Source of the DNA: Podarcis liolepis
Lineage: Eukaryota
Assembly (NCBI GenBank): GCA_965112155.1
Contig: OZ218103.1
Length of the DNA: 64,000 nt
Strand: one strand, 5' to 3'
Shown here: in pieces, positions 368-64,000 of the stretch
Layout: each line of letters starts with the position of its first letter
Position numbering within the stretch: the first letter of the stretch is position 1
The notes under the pieces: generated by a model
Databases searched by the model: none
The model's input: the letters and a program-made list of their open reading frames with translations, nothing else
Told to the model about the DNA's origin: nothing
Position numbers and translations under genes: made by a program

Positions 368-704
368 AATTACATGAACACATGTTGTATTTATCCCAAA
401 TAGGTGGTCAACCAGATTTTAATAAAGGGTTTACACAATCCTAGAATACCTCATTCCACCTGAGTCAATGGAACAGAATTAGGTCAGTCCAAAGTTACGC
501 ACTTGGAAGTTCCACTGATTTCAGTGGGAAGATTAATTGCATGCTTACCAATCTGAAATCAGTGACACACATTTAGCTTTATCTTGAACCCTTACTTAGT
601 AGAGAGTGTTACAGATAGGTAGCCGTGTTGGTCTGCCATAGTAAAAATAAAAAAATTCCTTCCAGTAGGAAGGACACTGTTGGCATCTGAAGGACACTGT
701 TGGC

Positions 705-1026
705 ATCGTCTAACATTGTGTATGTCATCAAATGCCAACAGTGTCCTTCAGCTCTCTATATTGGACAAACAGGCCAAACCTTATGCCAAAGAATAAACGG
801 ACATAAATCTGACATCAAGAATCACAAAACAGAGAAACCAGTAGGAGAACACTTCAATCTCTCAGGACATTCTATACAAGATCTCAAAGTAGCTGTTTTA
901 CTACAAAGGAATTTCAGAAATAGACTGGAAAGAGAAGCTGCTGAATTGCAACTCATTACCAAACTTAAAACCATGGAGAGACCTGGTCTGAACAGAGACA
1001 TTGGATTCTTATCTCATTATACATGA
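705..1026 (+). pseudogene. C-terminal GIY-YIG endonuclease domain of a Penelope-like element (truncated, no RT)
   Basis: SNIVYVIKCQQCPSALYIGQT...RINGH...VGEHF...RLERE...PGLN: GIY-YIG with PLE-type CCHH residues, catalytic E and GLN motif. Confidence 0.9.
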
Positions 1027-1206
1027 CTAAGCCATTTTTCACCTTCTCACCCCTTGCCTTTTCCTGCAAGACCTATTGCAGTCGTTAAGAGTCGTCAACA
1101 GGCTCATCTCAGCTATCTGCCAATCACCCATTCCCACCACCCTTCTGAGTAATACCCCTCCCCACCTTCTCACTATATAGAAGGATCTGGCAACTTCTGT
1201 TTCAGT

Positions 1207-1244
1207 GTATCTGAAGAAGTGTGCATGCACACGAAAGCTCATAC
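1207..1244 (+). ncRNA. Minimal type-I hammerhead ribozyme motif (PLE-type)
   Basis: GTAT-CTGAAGA-A-GTGTG(CATG)CACAC-GAAA-GC-TC-ATAC: intact core, 4-bp stem I, stem III reduced to palindromic AGCT. Confidence 0.8.
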
Positions 1245-2614
1245 CAAGAACTAACTTAGTTGGTCTTTAAGGTGCTACTGGAAGGAATTTTTTTAGTAGA
1301 GAGAAGCAGGCTGTCACCACCGATGCCTGTTATTTCTCAAAATCAAGACTGCATGAGAGCTGCACTAGTTCAGCAAAGTTTTCTGGGCTTGATGGGAGAG
1401 ATTTTTGGGAGGGTGCAACAGCAGAAGAGTGGAGCAGCCGTGATTTTCTGCCTGAACAGCAGCACACAGTGCGTTCACCTTTAAATGATAATTTAAATAT
1501 GGCTTAAAGTGATGTGCAAACTGGGCCATCACTAGAGTAGGAGTTACTAGAGTAGGATAAAGGTTTATGTATGTGATAATTTTCTTTACAGTTTTCAAAT
1601 GTTCCAACTGTCAGTCTCATACTGAGCAACAATGTGCAGAACTCAATGGAATGGGAGACCAGTGAACCAGAAGAGTCTCAATGGTTTACTTGCCTGTAGG
1701 CAGGGTCATCGTCCAAAGTCAGGTCCAGTCCTAGGGTCAGCTGAACAGCAATCCATGTGGTCAAATGGTCCAGGGGCCAGGGAATCCAATGATCAAGGAT
1801 CAAGGTGAACAGGAGCAGCAAAGTAGGGCCAGGCACTACTGACTGCAGCTGGATGCTCTGCTTAAGAAGGCTGAAGCCAGCTGTTTCTCATCAGTGCCTT
1901 CTCCTCTGTGTCCTTGAAAGCTGATCAGCTGCAAGTGGAGTCACTCTACCTTCTCCCCTTTCAGGCTGTTCAGCAGGCAAAGCTGACTCCTGGCCCATGA
2001 TACCAGTAACTTCTCTGCTGCTTAATCTTCTGGCTTGAAAACAGATGCTGAAGCAGCCAGATGTTTCTCCCTTTGAAGTCGAGGCTTTGCTACTGGGCTG
2101 CTGCTAGCAGATGCAGGAGGCTCTGGGGAAGCAAAGGTGCTACAGTTCTCAGGTGTTCCAACTTTTAGACATCAGAAATAATGCTAACGAATTAACATCT
2201 AGTGCATTGTGCCGCTGCAAGAACCACTAGATCGCAGGGACCGGGTGTCTTACTGAGTCCAACACCACTGCCACCGCCCCATCCCAATCCCTTTGGCCCT
2301 GACTGGTTTGGCAACACACACACCATTCCCAATTTTTGGCTTATTCTCAGATTGGGAAAACCCGGATCTACAAGTGAGAATGTGTGAGATGGGGCAGAGT
2401 GGGGAGGGCATCATGAGGGCATTGCAAAATAAACAGAGACATAAGCAACCTTAAATTCCCATTAAACTCCAGTGTGGACAACCCCTCAGAGAACACTGAG
2501 TTGCAACCACTCTGGGTGGGACAACAAAGTCCCTCACCACTCCTTTTAAGGCAGACCTCTGGTCTTCTGCCTACTACGTAGACCAAACAATATGATGCTT
2601 AATGTCCTACTTTC

Positions 2615-11549: not shown

Positions 11550-13644
11550 CCTTAAAGCTAGAAACTGTTGTTCTGGACATTGATACTGGTATTCAGTATA
11601 AGGGATAAGGACTGCATCAAACTTAAGAGATCTGAAAGAACACATAAGTTTTGTTAAACAATCTGGCTTTTACTTGAAAACTTTCCATAGCTACTTTATG
11701 ATTTCATAGCTTTCCCTGCTGCAGTTTACTGGCCAAAGTACCTGTTTCAATTGTGCCATCTATCTTTTCTCATTGTTCCTGGCTATTACAAAATCACCCT
11801 TGTCTTTCTCTGTAAGGTGATCCAGCACGCTCTACTCCATGTTTTACTACATCTAGCTCAAACACATCCCAGTAATGAAGCATGGTGCAAGTTAAAAGCA
11901 GCTGAAGGTGTATTACACTGGAGTGGGGAATCTTTGACCCTCCAGACAGTTCTAAAATACAGCACCCATCATCTCTGATTATTGGCTAGGCTGGCGGGAG
12001 TTGGGAGTCCAATAACATCTAGAGGGCCACAGGTTTCTTGCTCCTGTATTATACATTTAATCCTCCAGTCTTGCACTATTTGCTTACATTATTTCCCGAA
12101 TATATTACTTTCCCCACCTCCCACAATAGTGGGGTTTTGCGGTTCTTAACACGATGCTGTTAAGGGAATCTAGTGCGACAATAAATTGTTCAGCTCACAA
12201 CATATTTTCTTTATGAACTGTAGTGGTCCAATAGACTATTGAAAGCTCCTTTATCACTATAGTACTTCCTTACTGACGTTACACAAAATTCCCTACTGCA
12301 ACAGCTTTCAGGCATGTTTTTATATATATAAAACTTACCATACGTGCTTGCATTGGAACGTCTTGTAAATATCTAGCATCCATATATGCCTTTAAGTGCA
12401 GCCACATTGAATAATAATTGCTGAACCACTGTATCCCAGATGTGAGTGCAGTGGCATTTGATTTAGCTATCTGACCCACAGATGACAACTAAGAGATTGA
12501 GTGTGCACAGAGGACTAGACATTTTCTTCTGCCATGTGGCTATTTTTCTGAGAGTAGCCAGACTGCTCTGTGAAGCAAATGTAACCTTCTGCAGCAGCTT
12601 TTAAATGTGGTGTTAGCAAAAGTGATGGGTAGAATGTTTAAGAAAAGGGGAACAAATAACTTACGCAGTAACCAGTAGGAAAGAGACTACTTGGTTTTTA
12701 AAAAAATCTATTATGGATATGGAAGAAATGGAAAATACATTTAACACCTTAAGTGTGGAATCTAGAAACAAGCTCCCATCAACAGATTAGAAAAGCAAAA
12801 TATTTCTGCCTGAAAACAGCAAAAAACAAAAACTCTGAAATCCAGGAGAACCAGAAATGTAACACCTTAGGAGCAGGCAGATTTATTGGAATATTATTGG
12901 AATATTAATAAACTGGCCAGTCTCAAATTTTTAGAGAGTTTGGAAACAACAGGTGCTGTTCAAGTGTCCTGACAAGCATTCATTTAAAAATGTATGACAA
13001 GATGACAAACTCCTTTAATAAATGTGCTGGTGTTTGATTTCATGAGCACTTTGTTTGTGTGGTATGGCAAAATGACAAACTCCTTTAATAAATGTGTCAA
13101 TTTGCATTGTAACACAAGTAGATTTAGATACATAACAGTGTAGATAAGGAATTAATAAATAATGTGATTTTATCAAATTTAGATCTGACTCAAATAATAA
13201 TGAGATGGGACATTATAATAGAATGATACAGTAACATTGTAAGATAATTTTTTAGGTACTAGGGCAAGATCAAGTATCAGCAAGGAGGTGTTTTCAAAGC
13301 AGAGCTGCAAGACAAGGATGAAATCCTATTGAGTCCATAGGATGGCAGCATCTTTTAAATAAGTGGATAGTCTGACAGAATTAGATATGGGTCAAAACTG
13401 TAAATCTAGTTAATACCATATGTGATCTTGATGATGTGTTACATAGGGACCACTCAACTATTAGCAGGAGGCTTCCAAGATGTTTAAAGCAGATAAAGCT
13501 TTAGGGGCAATTTTAATTATTTTTAAAGCAAAAATGGATTGCCATAAGACGGTTATGCAACTTCTAGATTATATCAAGTATTTGCTCTGGAAATTTTATG
13601 CTTCTCAGGTGAGTAATTTCAGAACAGTAGCAGTGTTTGGAATT

Positions 13645-13852
13645 AGATTCAGGTGGGTAGCCGTTTTGGTCTGATGCAGTTGAAATAAATTAAAAAATTG
13701 TCCAGTAGCACCCTAGAGACCAACTAAGTTTGTTCTGGGTATATGCTTTCGTTGCATGCACACTTCATCAGATGGTATTTGAAGAAGTGTGCATGCACAC
13801 AAAATCTTCTACCCAGAACAAACTTGGTTGGTTTCTAAGGTGCTACTGGACA
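13645..13852. mobile_element. ORF-less palindromic PLE derivative: two decayed hammerhead/pLTR ends in inverted orientation
   Basis: 13-bp TSD AGTGTTTGGAATT (13632-13644 / 13853-13865); arms ~13698-13773 and ~13776-13853 are reverse complements and homologous to 1207-1282. Confidence 0.85.
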
Positions 13853-14300
13853 AGTGTTTGGAATTGTGCTGAAAAAAAGCTTGATAGTGTGAATATTATT
13901 CCTGGGTGCACAACTAAACCATATTAAGAGTTCCACAGAATAGCAGAGTCCCGAGCTTGCAACTTGTATGGATATTTTACTCTGCCCAACTCTTTGAAGC
14001 CTTTAGAGTCTTGCAATTAAATTCACATATAAATCAGTATTTGGGGGTGGGAAAATGCATATGAGCAAGTACTGTCAACCTGCATTTCCCTGTTTGTAGC
14101 ACTTTCACATCCGTTCAGGTTCATTGTATTGATAGTGATTGCATGCAAACCACACACAATTTACTGAGGTTTATGTTGCTTCACAGAAGCAACTCCTTAC
14201 ATGCACTGCTAAAAGTCAACATGACCTATCTAAAAACCATGCTTGCCATCCTCCCCTGAGTTGATACTTAATCAATAGCTGCAAAAAAAGGCAAAATGCT

Positions 14301-31300: not shown

Positions 31301-34300
31301 GGGCATTTATATGCAGCAGGCTATTAAATAAGTCAAAATTACCTAGGGATATTGATTGCTACATAACATACAAACATGCACACACACCCTATAGAACTCA
31401 GTTGAATATCTATGTATTGAACTTTAAAATACAGGATTATACACACCTGTATGTGATATGCTTCTGCCTCCACTTTTGTCCAGTTAGAGCATATCGCTTG
31501 CTCCTTCGTCTATGGCTTAGGTGGGGATGATCAGGAACACCACAGCGAGGCTTCTTCATCCACCTAGGAAGTGAAATATTCCCTAGTGAGTCTGGGAAAT
31601 ATGCTAAATGGAATGGTTATGAGCTAGGCTGTCCTGTTTGGTGGTTCAGCTACAAATAATGAATGCTAATTAATGGGCCACCGAGATAAGCTAGGAATGC
31701 AGATTACACCTGCCTGCCTAAGGGTGGTCTGCCCGGAGGGCAGGCGCTGAAATGGAATAAAGAAAAGGGCAGCTTGAACTGGGCCAGAAAAAGAGCTTTT
31801 AGAGTTTTTGAAGCAGGGTAGCAAGAAGCAATCTTGAGGGCTTGCTGTTGTTTTTGGAGACTGAAGAGGTTTAAGAACTAGTGCCACATTCATGCATGCA
31901 GTTTCTCCTATCCTTTCAAGGCACCACACATTTTCAGGATTCTCTTTCTTCACAGGGAAACCGCAGAACAACAGCAACAACAAACAAAAAAAGCACCTGT
32001 CTCTGGAATTTCCAAATCACTCAGGAAAGTGGGGAGGGAGCTTAAAACAAAATTTTAACAATGACTTGGATCCATTATAGATTAGTAAAGGAAAAGGGAC
32101 CCCTGACCATTAGGTCCAGTCGTGACCGACTCTGGGGTTGCGGCGCTCATCTCGCTTTATTGGCCGAGGGAGCTGACCATTATAGATTAGACAAAAGTAA
32201 AAATACCAATACATTTACCAATCAGTTTATCTACATTCTGAGCTGTAGGAAGCAGGAAGGGAGGAAAGTTGACATTCATATAACTATGTGTACATAAGAG
32301 CCAAACTATTTGCTCTTAATGTGTGATTTTTCTTTCAGAAGTAGCTAATGCTCCTCTGCCCACGTAAATTGAAGGAATGGGGTTCCCCTGTTCCAGATTG
32401 CAATTGCACCACAGTAGAGGGCTAAATAACTCTCTGCTCCATGCCAGGGTTCCAATATGGAACATCACTCCCCACAACCATCCTGCCCTGCTAGTTATTT
32501 CTGCAAGAAAAATCGTGTGCTCATTAATAACATCTCATGCAATCTGGCACTATGCAAATCAGTAAAGATCAGGCTCAGATTATGTCAGAGACACGTTTTG
32601 AAATAGCGTATCTTCCAGAATATAGAATGGTTTAAGATATAGAACTGCAATTCCTCTGTATATATGGGATTTAGACAAAACCCAATAATGGTTATATTAT
32701 ACATTGCACACAATGTTGTTTTTGCATGTCAGAGTTCCAGTTGTTAAACTGATTTAGTTAAACCAGCACAAATCCCTGTATGAACCCACTTATTTTGGAT
32801 TTAACATGGATTATGTTAGTTGATCAGTTCATTTCCAGTTAAATTTATTTAGCAAGAAATGGGGCTTGGTTGGCCATTTGAGCCAAGAGTCAGAGACATG
32901 TTCTGTTCCAGAGAATACATAAGCACCAAGTGAATTTATGCAGGTCCACATTATACAGGATTTCATCCAGCAATTAATGATTATTTTGGTGAATACAATG
33001 CTTTCAACTGTTTACAAAAGTAACTCTTACTCAATAGTCGTTGGGTCCAATACTCCTGTCACAGGGATGCCATAAAACTGCTGCATAGTGGTGACTGCAG
33101 ACTGCATAACTTTTCCTGAGTGCAGAGCAGACATTCGGGTGTCAGAAGGGAGCAGATAACCATAGGTTTTTAACCAGCTCTGAAAAATATGGTAAAGCAA
33201 AACCACGTTTACAACATAGTCTGATTTGACAGTATATATAAGCAGGTTAGATGTGCTATTCTTAAAGTGTTACACTCTTATTAATTTTAATATACAGTGG
33301 TACCTTGGGTTACAGACGCTTCAGGTTACATACGCTTCAGGTTACAGACTCTGCTAACCCAGAAATATTACCTCGGGTTAAGAACTTTGCTTCAGGATGA
33401 GAACAGAAATCGGGCGGCAACGGCACAGCGGCAGCAGGAGGCCCCATTAGCTAAAGTGGTGCTTCAGGTTAAGAACAGTTTCAGGTTAAGAATGGACCTC
33501 CGGAACGAATTAAGTACTTAACCCAAGGTACCACTGTAAATCCAAAGCTGAAACAGTTTGCTGCATATTTTGAGCTCATTTATTCTACTTGGTATATCTG
33601 AATACATGCTGTTTTGAGGATAACAATAAAAGTACAACATGAGCAAAGCCTGATTGCCATAATCAGTGCTAGTTTGCTAACCTCCCAGGGGTGGTTGAAT
33701 TACAGTTTGTGTGCAAATTTATCTCTTTTGTCTGCATACAGGTCATTAGTGTACATATCTCAATTTCAGCTGATGTACTTATTTTAAAGTATATGCCAGG
33801 TGGTTCTGAGGGTGGAGGGTAGGTAGATTGCCCACACATTTTTCTTTCACAATCTTGGTGTGTGTGTTTTTGTCATACCCAAAATGTATAAACCTGTTTA
33901 CGATAGTAGTCCGCATGGTTTTTGTGTTATATAGAGTTCCAATGAGAATCAAATTAGGGTTTGACAAGACAATGTAGGAAATAAATGTATTTAAATATGA
34001 CCAATACTTGAAAGGCTTTAAGAACACATTCACAGAGAAAAATTAAAACATTGCCTTATAACAGATCAGGCTATTTGTTCCTCTAGTCTCGACCACGGCT
34101 GTCCAGTCTGACTGGAGGCAGCCTCAAGCAAAGGACTGTCCTGTTTCCAAACAAAGCTTTGGTTCAAACTATATGTGACAGTGCCTGTTTAAGATCTCCC
34201 TCTATTGCATATAAAACGGGGGAAGGGAATGAATTCACCATTAGTCCATAGAATTCTAAAAGGAATGTGTACTCTTAGGCAAACAGCTAGGATTAAAATT

Positions 34301-40900: not shown

Positions 40901-43900
40901 CTTGCTGTGGAGGAAAGGTATTTAATAACACTTTTAGTAGCTTCATCAAAACTACTAAAGTCAAAGCTACTTCAAAGTCAAAGAAAACCAAACTTAAATG
41001 TGAAAATTATTTTTATGAAGACATCAAGTCAATAGAGTAGAGGACAATGTTTAAAGCTTCTCAAGGTACATTAAGAACAGAAATAAACAACTGAACCGAA
41101 AAGGAGAGAGCAGTAACCACATAACTCAACATTACTGTGATTATGGAGAAAGTTACAGTTACAGTATTTATTTACCCCTGTAAAATGGAAGCTGAGACAT
41201 GGACTCCTAATGATCCAACAGAATATTTTAACATGATCATCTCTTCACTCTATCTGAAGGTATCTGAAGAAGTGTGCATGCACACGAAAGCTCATACCAA
41301 GAACTAACTTAGTTGGTCTTTAAGGTGCTACTGGAAAGAATTTTTTTATCTTCACTCTACAGTTAGTGTTAGAAACTGCATGATATTGATTCTTATGGTT
41401 AGAGTAAAATGGCTGTGATCCAAAGAACCACATAGCTGGCTCCATACACCTGAGGAGGGCTGTGCTAAACACTCCTTCCAACATTTTGTATTCCCTATAA
41501 GGATTGCCTCAGTTGACCAGTAGCTTGAAGCAGGACAGCCATATCTGGTCTGCAACAATTTCAGTTTCATGGAGATTTAAATAATTTATATTCTCTTGCA
41601 TTATATTTTAATTATGAGCAGACAAACCGATACCTGAAGGAAAGCTTCTATGAGTTCTACAATGCATGCCTCAAATGACTAACAGCCCAATCTCAACACA
41701 TGCTGCATCAGCAAACAATTCCTTCAGATGGAATATATTGACTGCTGTTTCAACATGTCACAAAAAGGATCTTGGGAAGATAAAAAATTCATTATCACCT
41801 AAACTGACGTTGGTTCACATCTGTGTTTGGATTATGGGAAGAACTATGGTGTAATTTCTGTTGGGTGAAATCTTTCTGATATTGTCACTCAAGACAAACT
41901 CAAGAGTTTGTGCAAGGGGAGAGATATTTTTGTTTCAAAGAACTACCAACCACCAACAAATGTCTAGCAATGTAAACTGAACTTTAGAATAAATATTCAG
42001 AGATTTGAATTAAGGCTCAAAGCAAACAGGCAATTGCCCTAAAAATGGCAATATATATATATCTTTGTATTTACCTTTTAGGCCTGTTTCAACAATTCAC
42101 ATAAGTGCCTAGTAGAAATATCATTTATGGAAATAGCAGGATTTACTGTATACAAATGGGTCTTACTAAAAAATGCCAGAAAGCTACTTTGCAACTACTC
42201 ATTTCTAACCTAGGATTACCTCCTCTGCAAGGAGACAGCAGCTTCAAGCCTAATGATAGAACCACCCCATGCTAGTTAATGTCAACCTACACAACAGCTG
42301 CACCTTGTGTTCATTGATCTGATGCTGAAGTCCGCAAAGTACTTAGTACTTCAGTACTTAGCAAGTGAATATAAAGTAAAGCACCAAGGACTTCATGCAT
42401 CCGTAGACTGACAAACCCAAGGGGGGGGGGGAGAGCTATAAATTTACTTGAAAATTGCATGCCTAATGGTACCTGTAGCATATTTGCCTCTCATTTCTAT
42501 TGCTTATGAATTGCTTATGAGGATGGCTTTTCTCTATACTTTTCATACACAGCTATGCTGCCTCCACAATACAAAACAACAACAACAACCACCAGTATGA
42601 ACCTGTGCCAGGTAGTGTGTACAACCTTGACCATTAACAATATAATTCAGGGCTCGAGACCCAACTATTCATTCAAATATTTCTATATTCAAATAGATTT
42701 CTTGTAAATGCTTCTATAAAACTCAAGCAAATTATGTCATATTATTTTCTGTCATTTGAACGAACTTGAGAATGGTAGCTACTCCTAGTTCAAATGGCTT
42801 GAGAACTAATGGTTCAAACTTCATGAAAAATGGCACCCAGGAGGACATATCTAGTTTAAGAAATACTTGGGTAAATACTGTTAATGACTCTATTGTTTCA
42901 ATTCATTTTATGCTTCTTTACATTTATGTTTCTAGCTTTCATTTCCCTCCTCTACTCTTCCCCTGCTCCATATCATAAATCCAGATAGCATAACTGCATA
43001 GTTTTACATATATTTATTGATTGCATAGCATGTAATTAATCTATTGATCATTCACATTGTCAATTAAACTTGGCTCCATTAGCCTATGTTTGCAACTAAG
43101 GCTGTAATCCATCTGTCCCCTTCTGCTTGTCAGTGGGAGATGGAAAGCAGAGCTCACTCCATCAGCTCTGCTGTGACAGACCAGCTCCATCAGGACTCCT
43201 CTCCCTCAACTTTCACCTTGAAGCAGCCATTTCATCAGACTGCCTCTGTGAGAAAGATAGGAAGCAGGGCTCATTCCATCAGCTTGCCATCAGGCACCTC
43301 CTACCTCTGAATTGTACCAGAAGCTGGTCATTATAAGAACAGAACTGGGGCCTGAGTTGGATTTTGTGTGCAGGAAGGGACTATATATATACGTATTAAA
43401 ATGTATTGTATGGGAGCCTTTTTGGCTAAAGAGCAGGGTACAAACCCTCTAAATAAATATATAAATCCTAACCATGGCTACTCAGAAGTCAGTCCCATTT
43501 ACTCACAGTTAAATGGGGTTGGGATTACAGTATAAGACTGGAATCCTATACCCACTTACCTTGGGGCACATGCAACTGAACTCGAATGGGAATTACTTCT
43601 GAACAGATATGCATATATTTCACTGTAAAGGAGGATCTCTCTGCAATTGCAACCCTGCATCCAGTTACTCAGGTACAGAACTCATTAAATTAAAGGAAAC
43701 TTAACCATGCATAATTAAGGGCAGGAATGCACCCACAGCTATCACACAGCAGCACTACCACTGGGGGTGCACACATGCCATGGTAGTTTCTCCGTTCATA
43801 GAATCCTATCCAGAGAATGTTAGGCTACAGACCTACACACATTTACATGGGAGTAAATCCTATTGAACTGAATGGAATTCCTTCTAAGGAAACATCTTTA

Positions 43901-46351
43901 AGAATGCACTATTAGTTTCACTTAACATTAGCTGTGATGTGATCCACTTATCCCATTGATTTCAAATGACCAAAATGTAACTTTCTCCAAATTGGGGCCA
44001 CAGAACTGTAGCATATTAAATGTAATTAGCACAAGCTCCTTCATTACAGGAACATTCACCTGCACATACACAGCCAACTCTACAGATTAGCCTTTCTCAG
44101 CCTTGGGTCCCCAGATGTTGGACTACAACACCCATTATCCCTAGCTAGCAGGACCAGTGGCCAGGGATGATGGAACTAATGGAACTTATTTCAGCTACTT
44201 GAGGCATGCCCAAATGCTTGGCTGCACCCATAATGATACAACATCCCCACCCCATCTCCCAAACTACTTTAGAAAGTTTCCTCAGTCTATGGATGTATAA
44301 ACCTGCCAATTCCACTTTCTCTTTCTTCCAGTCTTAAATTCAGTTATCCATATCCGCACATCAGCTTGAGATTTATTTATTTTTAAAAGTTCACGAAAAT
44401 TTGGCCTTTTCGTACAAATTTCTCCTAATACAGTATACACTCTTGTATGTAACAAAGGTAAAGGGACCCCTGACCATTAGGTCCAGTCATGACCAACTCT
44501 GGGGTTGCGGCGCTCATCTTGCTTTATTGGCCAAGGGAGCCGGCATACAGCTTCCGGGTAATATTGCCTAAAATATACCTTTTTTGCCAAACAAATTTCC
44601 CTAATGCATTTTGTATATTATTTTCAAGAATATATATATCTGAATGCACATTTTACTAGAGTATATGCATTTCTGTACATAGTACTTATCTGAAGGACAG
44701 CACTGCAAGATCTGAGAAAGTGCTTATTTCAAAGAATGGTTGTTCATGTATTGCTGCAGAAAACGTGGATTAAGCAGATTTGCTCTTAAATGCAAACAAA
44801 AAAAAATTTCTTCCCCAGTCCGATCTCAGGGTCAATAGTGGTTTAGCATGTGATGTGAGGGGCTGCTGCTGCTGTGCGAGCAATGTCAGCTACAAGATCC
44901 TTGGGGCATCTCACCAGCAACCATTGGTCAGTAGCAGGTCAATGTTAAGAAACAGACCAGCAGTTCCCATGTATCAGAAGTTTTATGCACAGGTTTGCTA
45001 GCCTGTCACTGCTCTGTGAAGGTTCTACAGTTGCAGTTAACGGGACTGTCCTTATCTCCTACCCACCTCATTAATTTAACCCTTCCAAATCGGTATATTC
45101 AAGACCGAGTAGGTAATAACACTCAGCTATATTGACAAACAAAACTGCACACCTCATATAACTGGCCAACCTCATCCTAAACGCTAAAATGTGCATTGTC
45201 AACCATGCATATCTTCGTCCTTAAAAGTTGTGCCTGGTTGCATTTTCACACCATGTTTTTCTATTATTCCTATTATTGATGGAAGGCATTAACACGGAGA
45301 CATGTACCAAACAACACCATAAAAAGCTAGCAAAAGGAAGAGGGTACAGGAATATAATTACAGACCCAAAATCAACAGCACCATTAACGTTTAGCCAGCG
45401 CCGTACTTCTCCCTCTGTGCCTGCGCTGCTGGCCGCAAAAGCTGTGCATGCTGCTCAATAACATGTATGCACGTTCCTATATACTGGCAGATCTTTCCCA
45501 TGAACGCACCATTAGGGACGAAAAAGAAAGAACATTTTCGAGTCGCCCCCCCACCCCGGGAGAAGCTGGCTCACATGTTTCATGTGCCCATTTCCATTAG
45601 ACCAGGGCACCCCGATTCACCTTTCTCTCCCTCTCGCATCCTAGCCACCGTCCTCCATGGCATTCCCCCTGACCCCCACAATCGCCGCCGCCGCCCCTTA
45701 TTCCCTGCAGGCGGAAGAGAGCAGCTCAGGCCCCTTCCCCTGAGGACCCCACGCCAGACCTCCCAGGCAGTGGCACCCAAACATATCTCCCCCCCATCAG
45801 CAGCCTTCCTGGAGATCCCCACTCCTTCCTCTGAGGGAAGGAAAACAGCCAACAACACCCCCCAGGCGCCGGGAGGAGCCCCTCGACCCGCGTCCACCTT
45901 CATTTAATTGGAGACAACGCCGCCGTGCCAGGAGGAGAGCGAGGAAGGGGGGCACCCCAGCAGCCCCTCCCTGTCTCTGCCAGCCTTGCCAGCCTGGGGA
46001 AGGCGCACTGGTCCAGCTCCACCTCGCCTCCACCTGCCCTCCCTTCAGCCGGGGGGCGACCCAGCAGGCCGGGCCCCCCCCCAGGTTGCCGTGCCCGGGG
46101 GCTGGGAGCGGGGGCGACGCCCGGGGATGGAGAGGAAGGAGCCCTCCGGGCGGCAGCTTCCCATTTGTCTCCCTCACGGCACCCACCCAGGGAGGCGGCT
46201 CGCCGCTCCCTGTCCCTACCGGGCCGACGCTGGTGTCCCCAGAAGCGCAGAGCAGGGGGGCGCGGAGGAGGAGGAGGAGGAGCAGGCGGCGGCACCCCCA
46301 GGCAGGGGCTCCACGGCATCCCCGCTGCCTCCGCTCCATGGCGGGGCCCAT
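16623..46351 (-). CDS. MMP24: Matrix metalloproteinase-24 (MT5-MMP), 9 coding exons; exons 2-9 total 1692 nt (563 aa + stop)
   Basis: Signal peptide, PRCGVPD cysteine switch, RRRSKR furin site, [11 protein letters not shown] zinc motif, Met-turn, hemopexin repeats, TM segment and C-terminal ...RPVQEWV*. Introns are GT-AG and in phase. Confidence 0.97.
17456..17722 (-). CDS. MMP24: MMP24 exon 8 (267 nt)
   Basis: [49 protein letters not shown]...FVSKEG. Confidence 0.96.
17869..18007 (-). CDS. MMP24: MMP24 exon 7 (139 nt)
   Basis: [46 protein letters not shown]. Confidence 0.95.
18884..19098 (-). CDS. MMP24: MMP24 exon 6 (215 nt, hinge + hemopexin start)
   Basis: [20 protein letters not shown]...[22 protein letters not shown]. 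Confidence 0.96.
19279..19410 (-). mobile_element. tRNA-Lys-derived SINE with CR1-type (ATTCTRTG)n tail
   Basis: Minus strand agagcaggagactcttaatctcagggtcttgggttcaagccccacattgg (tRNA-Lys CTT-like) followed by gacccttg...ttccaactctacaattctatgattctgtg. Confidence 0.7.
20760..20794. repeat. (TG)n microsatellite
   Basis: Direct reading. Confidence 0.95.
21709..21870 (-). CDS. MMP24: MMP24 exon 5 (162 nt, zinc-binding motif)
   Basis: [34 protein letters not shown]...GIQKIYG. Confidence 0.97.
22284..22318. repeat. (AG)n microsatellite
   Basis: Direct reading. Confidence 0.95.
26522..26826 (-). CDS. MMP24: MMP24 exon 4 (305 nt, catalytic domain)
   Basis: [37 protein letters not shown]...[37 protein letters not shown]. 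Confidence 0.97.
29144..29289 (+). mobile_element. RTE-BovB LINE 3' end with (CAA)n tail
   Basis: gcctggcgtgctctggtccatggggtcacgaagagtc..acacgactaaacgactaaacaacaacaa; 10-bp TSD AGCAGTCTCA. Confidence 0.85.
31447..31563 (-). CDS. MMP24: MMP24 exon 3 (117 nt, cysteine switch + furin site)
   Basis: [38 protein letters not shown]. Confidence 0.96.
32086..32176 (-). mobile_element. 5'-truncated Sauria SINE 3' end
   Basis: aaagg..aaagggacccctgaccattaggtccagtcg (reverse of ACCTTT-type tail); 14-bp TSD CCATTATAGATTAG (32072-32085 / 32177-32190). Confidence 0.8.
33031..33179 (-). CDS. MMP24: MMP24 exon 2 (149 nt, propeptide)
   Basis: ttcag| [50 protein letters not shown] |gtaag. Confidence 0.95.
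33295..33536. mobile_element. Tc1/mariner-pogo (Tigger-like) MITE
   Basis: Perfect 18-bp TIR CAGTGGTACCTTGGGTTA with TA TSD on both sides. Confidence 0.88.
34915..34947. repeat. (CA)n microsatellite
   Basis: Direct reading. Confidence 0.95.
37648..37790. mobile_element. Common squamate hAT-like MITE (other copies ~11920-12045, ~44095-44175, ~50720-50800, ~60620-60755)
   Basis: gatggagaacctg...gttggactccaact...tgggagttgtagtc...gggccacaggttcccca palindromic layout recurring in the window. Confidence 0.6.
38545..38905 (+). mobile_element. RTE-clade LINE 3' fragment
   Basis: Decayed ORF end: [16 protein letters not shown] ... [23 protein letters not shown] (C-terminal zinc-finger-like motif typical of RTE). 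Confidence 0.7.
40205..40340. mobile_element. GC-rich MITE (PIF/Harbinger-like)
   Basis: cagccaaggggggcagggaggggcagctgcccccc ... ctgccccccctaacaaaaatcctggatacgccc; internal duplicated ctgccccccctaacaaaa. Confidence 0.45.
41253..41348 (+). mobile_element. 96-bp hammerhead-only PLE insertion in MMP24 intron 1
   Basis: 11-bp TSD TCTTCACTCTA (41242-41252 / 41349-41359); 41260-41346 matches 1207-1293 with one substitution. Confidence 0.88.
41260..41297 (+). ncRNA. Minimal type-I hammerhead ribozyme motif (identical to 1207-1244)
   Basis: GTATCTGAAGAAGTGTGCATGCACACGAAAGCTCATAC. Confidence 0.8.
43465..43965. repeat. Cluster of ~5 decayed copies of a short palindromic repeat (aatccta...ttact...agt...cccattgaa...atggga.ttacttct...)
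   Basis: Motif recurs serially here and singly at ~485-560, ~46820-46880 and ~63670-63735. Confidence 0.5.
44454..44560 (-). mobile_element. Sauria SINE fragment
   Basis: aaaggtaaagggacccctgaccattaggtccagtc...cagcttccgggt, near-identical to the 32086 copy. Confidence 0.8.
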
Positions 46352-50455: not shown

Positions 50456-63487
<13,032 letters not shown>

Positions 63488-63922: not shown

Positions 63923-64000
63923 AAGCTAAAGGTAAAGGGCCCCTGACCATTAGGTCCAGCCGTGCCCGACTCTGGGGTTGTGGCGCTCATCTTGCCTTAT
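63923..64000 (-). mobile_element. Sauria SINE fragment (runs off window)
   Basis: aaaggtaaagggcccctgaccattaggtccag... Confidence 0.75.

Follow-up and report, generated by a model that had tools for sequence, protein, structure and literature searches.

Structure of the insert and its empty site

The window, i.e. the whole stretch of 64,000 nucleotides analysed here (one strand of contig OZ218103.1, Podarcis liolepis assembly GCA_965112155.1), contains a membrane-type MMP gene on its minus strand, with exon 2 near position 33180 and a probable exon 1 near 46340-46210. Between these exons, in the first intron of the gene and antisense to it, lies an insert of 96 bp (41253-41348) that is framed by two copies of TCTTCACTCTA (Table 1). 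A preliminary description of this DNA had placed the insert antisense to MMP24 pre-mRNA; the antisense position in an MMP intron was confirmed, but the name MMP24 stems from that description, and the best solved-structure match in our analysis was MMP16. In three RNA runs of a relative, the two strands of the ribozyme region were covered at a ratio of ~1.1:1 (summed depth of 1,027 vs 903 in three bins), a value too confounded by inverted pairs and by the small number of loci to bear on the suggested purging of sense-strand self-cleaving copies from introns.

Table 1. Coordinates of the insert, its parts and related features in the window
Feature	Position	Strand	Basis
Left copy of the target-site duplication (TSD), 11 bp, TCTTCACTCTA	41242..41252	+	Sequence; single copy at the empty site in 4/4 DNA runs
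7-nt templated stutter TCTGAAG, a second copy of element +6..+12	41253..41259	+	Sequence comparison
Minimal type I hammerhead motif, element +3..+40	41260..41297	+	Sequence; fold of the 41-nt core
Remaining 5' UTR, extending to the U-rich tract at +91 (the first 3'-end cluster of two; putative priming sites)	41298..41348	+	3' ends of 100 arms; ATG near +99
Right TSD copy, 11 bp, TCTTCACTCTA	41349..41359	+	Sequence; empty-site comparison
Longer copy, also of the young subfamily and 5'-truncated; comprises endonuclease end, promoter region and hammerhead	704..1295	+	Sequence comparison
TATA-like box TATATAGA in the longer copy, 30 nt upstream of A1204; putative promoter, which the stub lacks	1174..1181	+	Sequence
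Predicted hairpin in read-through RNA, CUGAAGA core paired with upstream sequence, -14..+24	1190..1228	+	Folding prediction only
Initiator-like TTCAGT (A1204 = 0, G1205 = +1, G1207 = +3); breakpoint peak, predicted transcription start	1201..1207	+	Sequence, breakpoints
Head-to-head pair of the older subfamily, 13-bp duplication	13632..13867	.	Sequence comparison

The insert had been credited with its own 11-bp TSD, and this was borne out by the framing repeats together with the empty site, which was present in its joined form in 4/4 DNA runs (from at most three samples), with 107 bp skipped and 11 letters that fit on either side. Over ~690 bp, the flanks in run X15 depart from the window at one letter and in one indel of 5 bp. 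From these nearly identical flanks without the insert, it follows that the insertion at 41253-41348 is very recent, and it is probably polymorphic. The empty site between such flanks in another sample also makes the insert a possible presence/absence marker; as a single insert, it is otherwise ordinary. Run X15 carries five additional letters (TACAG) at window position 41223, 18 bp upstream of the insertion site.

In the numbering used throughout, +1 of the element is window position 1205 and position 0 is A1204, and the insert comprises element +3..+91. Within the window, 41260-41348 and 1207-1295 are identical at 88/89 positions, with the sole mismatch at 41337, in agreement with the single difference over ~87 nt that had been noted relative to the copy 40 kb away. 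This longer copy also has a short inverted arm at about 612-668. The stutter noted at the 5' junction of the insert could likewise be verified: TCTGAAG is joined to the target via a 2-nt TA microhomology, the TA that completes TATCTGAAG being part of the duplicated target, and the last G of the stutter sits at the place where a frequent extra G occurs (see below). The preliminary description had further portrayed the insert as the hammerhead plus the 3' end of the pLTR. The hammerhead is indeed there, but since the ATG of the ORF follows ~99 nt after the 5' edge of the hammerhead at stem I (hereafter, the edge), the insert is better described as the 5' UTR of the element.

The hammerhead shows the features of the minimal type I class, namely CUGANGA and GAAA boxes, a stem II, a short stem I, a palindromic remnant of helix III and a UH cut site. 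In the insert, the boxes are CUGAAGA at 41264-41270 and GAAA at 41286-41289, stem II spans 41272-41285, stem I is formed by GUAU/AUAC, and self-cleavage is predicted after 41293. Structure predictions for the 41-nt core give both stem I and stem II; the 89- and 96-nt folds were not more stable than those of shuffled sequences (z of 0.43 and -0.20), and the Rfam hammerhead models gave no match to the window at gathering scores. The same architecture, with a long stem II, a short stem I and no real helix III, is described for the minimal hammerheads in the pLTRs of metazoan Penelope-like elements (PLEs); in that study, one minimal hammerhead on its own showed no cleavage in vitro (PMC4209133).

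The parent element and its family

A 34-mer of the spacer has 14,332 exact matches in the 1.57-Gb genome, and a 28-mer of the ORF start has 77. Tandem parents with a 3,008-bp period bear an intact 910-aa ORF (locus L166), which carries the Pfam domain RVT_1 together with GIY-YIG at its C terminus. The linker between reverse transcriptase (RT) and endonuclease (EN) is cysteine-rich and Zn-finger-like (CNKPRCQLCCHIH), and a linker of this kind is named as a feature of Neptune and Nematis (PMC8557442). Judged by its ORF layout, the parent is an EN+ PLE of the Neptune type. Tandem or partial-tandem parents, inverted arms, an optional tail and target duplication are all present in the family. RT with C-terminal GIY-YIG, the cysteine-rich linker, tandem parents and head-to-head arms are common to this element and to EN+ PLEs of the Neptune type, as are target duplications of ~9-13 bp and inserts that are truncated at the 5' end and have a pLTR, an inverted arm and, optionally, a tail (PMC8557442, PMC3846280).

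At loci L166-L168, tandem and inverted full-length parents are 99.9% identical and have an intact ORF, and the family therefore probably remains active. An older subfamily has 542 exact matches in the genome, and the head-to-head pair at 13632-13867 belongs to it; one of its arms begins at +5 and the other, preceded by an extra G, at +3, which upholds the earlier remark that the element at 13645 inverts at the same hammerhead edge. In two paralogous copies located 30 kb apart on contig C1 (L119 and L120), an identical short insertion was found, and its presence in both copies implies that it predates the local duplication.

Copies of the element start preferentially at the edge

The 5' ends of copies were mapped in two sets whose anchors are both independent of the 5' end. 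Set A consists of the first 100 of the 14,332 listed spacer matches (start of contig C1) and set B of 89 arms, obtained at 90 of the 100 matches listed first for a tail pattern (279 in total; contigs C1-C4), neither of them being a random draw. Three matches duplicating other loci and the last seven were left out of set B, one duplicate was collapsed, and two loci are common to both sets. All breakpoint counts exclude 30 loci retrieved with a stutter-containing query, which is biased, and 30 further loci from the search for extra Gs.

The sharp peak of 5' ends expected at stem I was present in both sets, as 40/100 (A) and 26/89 (B) arms ended within 8 nt, at -2..+5. Upstream of the edge we counted 34 (A) and 18 (B) ends, and downstream 26 (A) and 45 (B). 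Expressed per nucleotide at risk, the stop rate at the edge was 0.089 (A) and 0.104 (B), i.e. ~20 times the upstream rate (0.004 and 0.005), and it was 0.007 and 0.006 downstream; the peak stood out against both neighbouring regions in both samples (binomial p < 1e-18). Among the arms that reach the edge, 40/74 (A) and 26/44 (B) stop there. Thus, in contrast to the variable 5' truncation described for EN+ PLEs (PMC8557442, PMC3846280), more than half of the edge-reaching arms stop within 8 nt. Genome-wide counts of 20-mers fell from 14,402 just inside the edge to 4,201 just outside and 3,356 another ~50 nt upstream, the 3.4-fold inside/outside drop being overstated by an inside 20-mer that is common to older subfamilies. 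In the older subfamily, 34/94 arms were at the edge.

The 3' ends were bimodal: in set A, 49 lay at +85..+102, 50 at +126..+139 and one at the reference end. Most arms of this set (74/100) are paired head to head, and solo edge copies like 41253-41348 make up 12/189 arms. Stutters of the terminal bases were found in 8/66 edge arms, in 0/46 upstream-ending and in 1/51 downstream-ending arms. The edge also delimits copies that run into the ORF: of 51 ORF-start matches (out of 77) examined by eye, 14 reach at least -40, 11 start at -2..+5 and none starts between -39 and -3. Where a further unit is joined behind an ORF-start fragment, this unit begins at -2..+3 in 17/27 cases (by eye), a pattern that suggests jumps off the end of a template in which the leader precedes the ORF. 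Hammerhead-cleaved RNA was rejected as the main template, since around the cleavage site there was one end per 471 nt at risk (A) and none per 355 (B); one junction lies at exactly +37 (L145). For the Anolis element Poseidon PAc, uncleaved RNA is likewise reported to be the main template (PMC11167929).

Two further observations concern the junctions. The ends of ORF-start fragments (L136-L188) cluster near +190..+210 and +320..+345, the first cluster being partly an anchor effect, and these positions are perhaps further internal priming or re-entry sites. At four loci (L246, L112, L020 and L013), the junctions contain at least three short repeats of the first 8-12 bases of the element, a pattern that recalls repeat addition of the telomerase kind or polymerase-theta insertions.

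Putative promoter motifs, predicted start site and extra G

TATA boxes and initiators follow established rules of consensus and spacing. The older subfamily has TATATATAAG at the place of the TATA-like box, and the TATA and initiator-like motifs are kept in both subfamilies. Promoters are known in pLTRs (PMC2377424, PMC3846280), and Adineta Pen2a has TATA/initiator motifs in its pLTR, as does the lizard element (PMC8557442, PMC3846280).

In copies that start at +3, the preceding base was a G in 1,966 cases, compared with 1,075 for A or C together, and in the older subfamily 11/13 starts at +3 had such an extra G. A native G variant was rejected as its source in the young subfamily, given that only six upstream-extending copies have a G before +3. 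In full-length L1 inserts, an extra G is taken as a mark of cap copying (PMC11702581), and cap copying would likewise account for the excess of G at the +3 starts here. Starts at +1 were preceded by a T in 20/25 cases, as would be expected of an untemplated A on the cDNA. The extra G, the T before +1, the ORF-start pieces that share the edge and the edge-specific stutters would all fit a real RNA end at this position. We therefore consider it probable that the edge is the transcription start of the element and that the stubs, as we call short copies such as 41253-41348, are run-off products at the capped 5' end of its RNA.

Several observations qualify this interpretation. The modal end of the young subfamily is +1, the initiator A (position 0) is the end of only 2/66 edge arms, and only 3/25 starts at +1 have an extra G; a candidate block at a methylated cap-adjacent A would explain both the +1 mode and the few extra Gs. 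Many of the extra Gs could also stem from microhomology, shared with the flank or with the partner arm (this applies to the 41253-41348 insert too), or from a fold-back of 1 nt on stem I, although the cDNA end at +3 is predicted to be paired only 5-10% of the time. In the three RNA runs of the relative, we found loose ends at +3, from copies read in passing, and no pile-up of molecule starts there. An advance prediction, namely that the second TATA register of the older subfamily would move the mode to +3, yielded six ends at +1 and five at +3 in 60 fresh regions (p = 0.49; binned p = 0.055), and the first 30 loci, which had suggested the shift, are not independent support.

A probable run-off origin of the stubs

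Retroviral minus-strand strong-stop DNA is a short cDNA whose extent is set by an internal primer site and by the capped end of the RNA. The stubs would arise in a comparable way, with the difference that they would be primed from target DNA and integrated directly. Tandem parents would be transcribed from the TATA/initiator promoter in the upstream repeat, with a start at 0 to +3, just before stem I. The enzyme would then cut AT-rich DNA and prime at one of two internal sites, as the bimodal 3' ends observed here suggest. Each priming site would lie near the 5' as well as the 3' end of the mRNA: use of the 3' copy would give rise to long, variably truncated inserts and use of the 5' copy to a run-off product of 90-135 nt, analogous to strong-stop DNA. 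About half of the edge-reaching arms stop at the edge, as two equivalent priming sites would give. Upon reaching the template end, the enzyme may copy the cap (extra G), add an untemplated base, stutter or jump, and end joining would close the gap; the corresponding junctions were observed, their cause being the conjectural part.

Internal priming about 90-130 nt downstream of the edge followed by run-off would thus leave stubs without a promoter. In the case of 41253-41348, the reverse transcriptase likely primed ~90 nt into its own mRNA and then ran off the capped 5' end, and the resulting promoterless stub is likely a dead end. With run-off, neither a stall at the ribozyme nor a SINE is needed.

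Internal priming has been demonstrated in vitro for the related Anolis element Poseidon PAc, whose two internal priming sites match tail ends, similar to the two 3'-end clusters described above; that study treats 3' ends, and its main text does not describe run-off products from the 5' copy of a priming site (PMC11167929). Most minimal hammerhead motifs of metazoan PLE pLTRs are reported to be single dispersed copies that probably derive from truncated PLEs, and the available text of the same source neither maps the starts of single copies nor ties the edge to a transcription start or an occluding hairpin (PMC4209133). Accordingly, single short copies of the hammerhead that derive from truncated PLEs are already known, as are tails, inverted arms and internal priming, and 41253-41348 is a real, young and probably dead stub of a known class, which exemplifies a strong family-wide pattern with a testable mechanism. 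An explanation of the stubs by run-off at the transcription start was not found in our literature search, whose reach did not include subscription journals, Repbase notes and some supplements. The regeneration of the pLTR in PLEs was left open, with 'no obvious mechanism' (PMC2377424), and what the PLE hammerhead does is not settled (PMC4209133, PMC11167929). Should the stubs be run-off products, the genome would hold, in thousands of junctions, a base-resolution record of where transcription starts, of cap copying and of template jumps.

Alternative explanations of the edge

RNA or cDNA structure might create the edge on a continuous template, through a stall at the hammerhead or at the upstream hairpin (-14..+24), a nick of the RNA in its loop (+2..+6) or fold-back of the cDNA, an explanation that we regard as unlikely. 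According to the predicted folds, the hairpin at 1190-1228 is the main rival route, as its core (-7.8 kcal/mol) is stronger than stem II (-4.1 kcal/mol) and its loop at +2..+6 lies inside the breakpoint peak. There is also a mild excess of ends at stem II (0.010 and 0.015 per nt), and 7/66 edge arms begin at -1, a position at which pairing of the cDNA end is predicted. However, a block should halt the enzyme at the 3' edge of a helix (+15, +24, +28 or +40) and not past it, the exact hairpin fold-back junction occurred in 0/86 junction strings (with a loose pattern that admitted ~5 rows that were not head to head), and a nicked RNA without a cap would leave the excess of G unexplained. The same consideration weakens the earlier suggestion that reverse transcription stalls at the ribozyme fold: the peak is at the 5' edge, which is reached only after the entire ribozyme has been copied.

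Quite unlikely, in our view, is a separate short non-autonomous RNA that is mobilised in trans in a SINE- or retrozyme-like manner, for example as transcripts of thousands of promoter-bearing truncated copies. Potential sources are plentiful, as ~4,200 copies retain the sequence just upstream of the edge vs 77 with the ORF-start 28-mer, and trans-mobilisation through pLTRs has been reported (PMC3846280). Yet the pieces that run into the ORF bear the same edge, both tail variants occur in short (3 and 12) as well as in long (1 and 17) arms (a small sample with one marker), the daughter copies lack the predicted promoter and would not be able to found a lineage, and the template of the related Anolis protein has to include the first 172 nt of the ORF (PMC11167929). 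A SINE would have its own internal promoter; here, the copied part begins downstream of the TATA and initiator motifs. Given the shared edge, the distribution of the tail variants and the monomeric state of the insert, the tiny SINE- or retrozyme-like ribozyme RNA invoked in the preliminary description is not needed.

Non-LTR retrozymes are short hammerhead repeats related to pLTRs, for which dispersed monomers have been noted, and they comprise at least two tandem hammerhead units (bioRxiv 10.64898/2026.07.22.740005), whereas 41253-41348 is a single unit between TSDs and falls outside that definition. For their origin, this preprint proposes local amplification of terminal repeats rather than run-off and template jumps. 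In the three RNA runs of the relative (6-12% of each run covered; not small-RNA libraries), we found no joints of the circular-RNA type.

Alternatively, the edge might be a 3' splice site (CTTCTGTTTCAG|TG at +1|+2) and the stubs copies of spliced or part-spliced RNA. Although the sequence has a pyrimidine tract and a CAG, with a branch-point-like CTCAC at 32 nt upstream, and the intron of Drosophila virilis Penelope ends at helix I (PMC4209133), we consider this very unlikely: in 0/66 edge arms is the edge preceded by at least 11 nt of upstream element sequence in sense, no joint skipping into the site was seen in the three RNA runs of the relative (~490 nt upstream covered), and neither the spread of ends over -1..+5 nor the extra G at +3 would be explained.

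Finally, ordinary random 5' truncation, with stem I as a chance end point, has next to no standing, as the scattered upstream ends of 34/100 and 18/89 arms are what it predicts but the sharp peak in both samples refutes it for the family and shows that the class of 41253-41348 is not random truncation, even if a single insert could have arisen in this way.

Folding of the leader

The predicted hairpin bears on the fold of the hammerhead as well. With upstream sequence present, the CUGAAGA core paired with a probability of 0.92-0.99 in folding predictions and stem I was near 0, whereas in RNA beginning at 0, +1 or +3 stem I formed at ~0.9; the hairpin cannot form in RNA that starts at 0..+3. 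The upstream pairing segment of the hairpin is nearly unchanged in the older subfamily.

Building on the run-off origin favoured above, we tentatively suggest that the Penelope leader may be a position-sensing switch as well as the seed of the element's architecture, an idea to which we attach less than even odds. The hammerhead would be free to fold in the capped 5' copy alone, being hairpin-locked in the 3' read-through copy, and leader-primed, strong-stop-like cDNAs would be integrated singly, in head-to-head pairs or following jumps back to the ORF start, giving rise to pLTR tandems and to hammerhead tandem repeats (retrozymes), as in L179. At this locus (G000:C7:59194000-59195700), positions 438-1241 on the minus strand hold three head-to-tail units of ~335, 337 and 135 nt, each of which begins at the hammerhead edge. 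The array could be a nascent hammerhead tandem repeat and could show how retrozymes originate.

Other features of the window

Apart from the PLE copies, another short repeat occurs at 32087-32173, 44454-44540 and 63927-64000, with copies that are 90-94% identical, and two diverged repeats at 33437-33549 and 56411-56522 lie in opposite orientation and are 77% identical. The segment 3001-4000 is a CpG island (GC content of 0.54, observed/expected ratio of 0.92), which is probably the promoter of a neighbouring gene.
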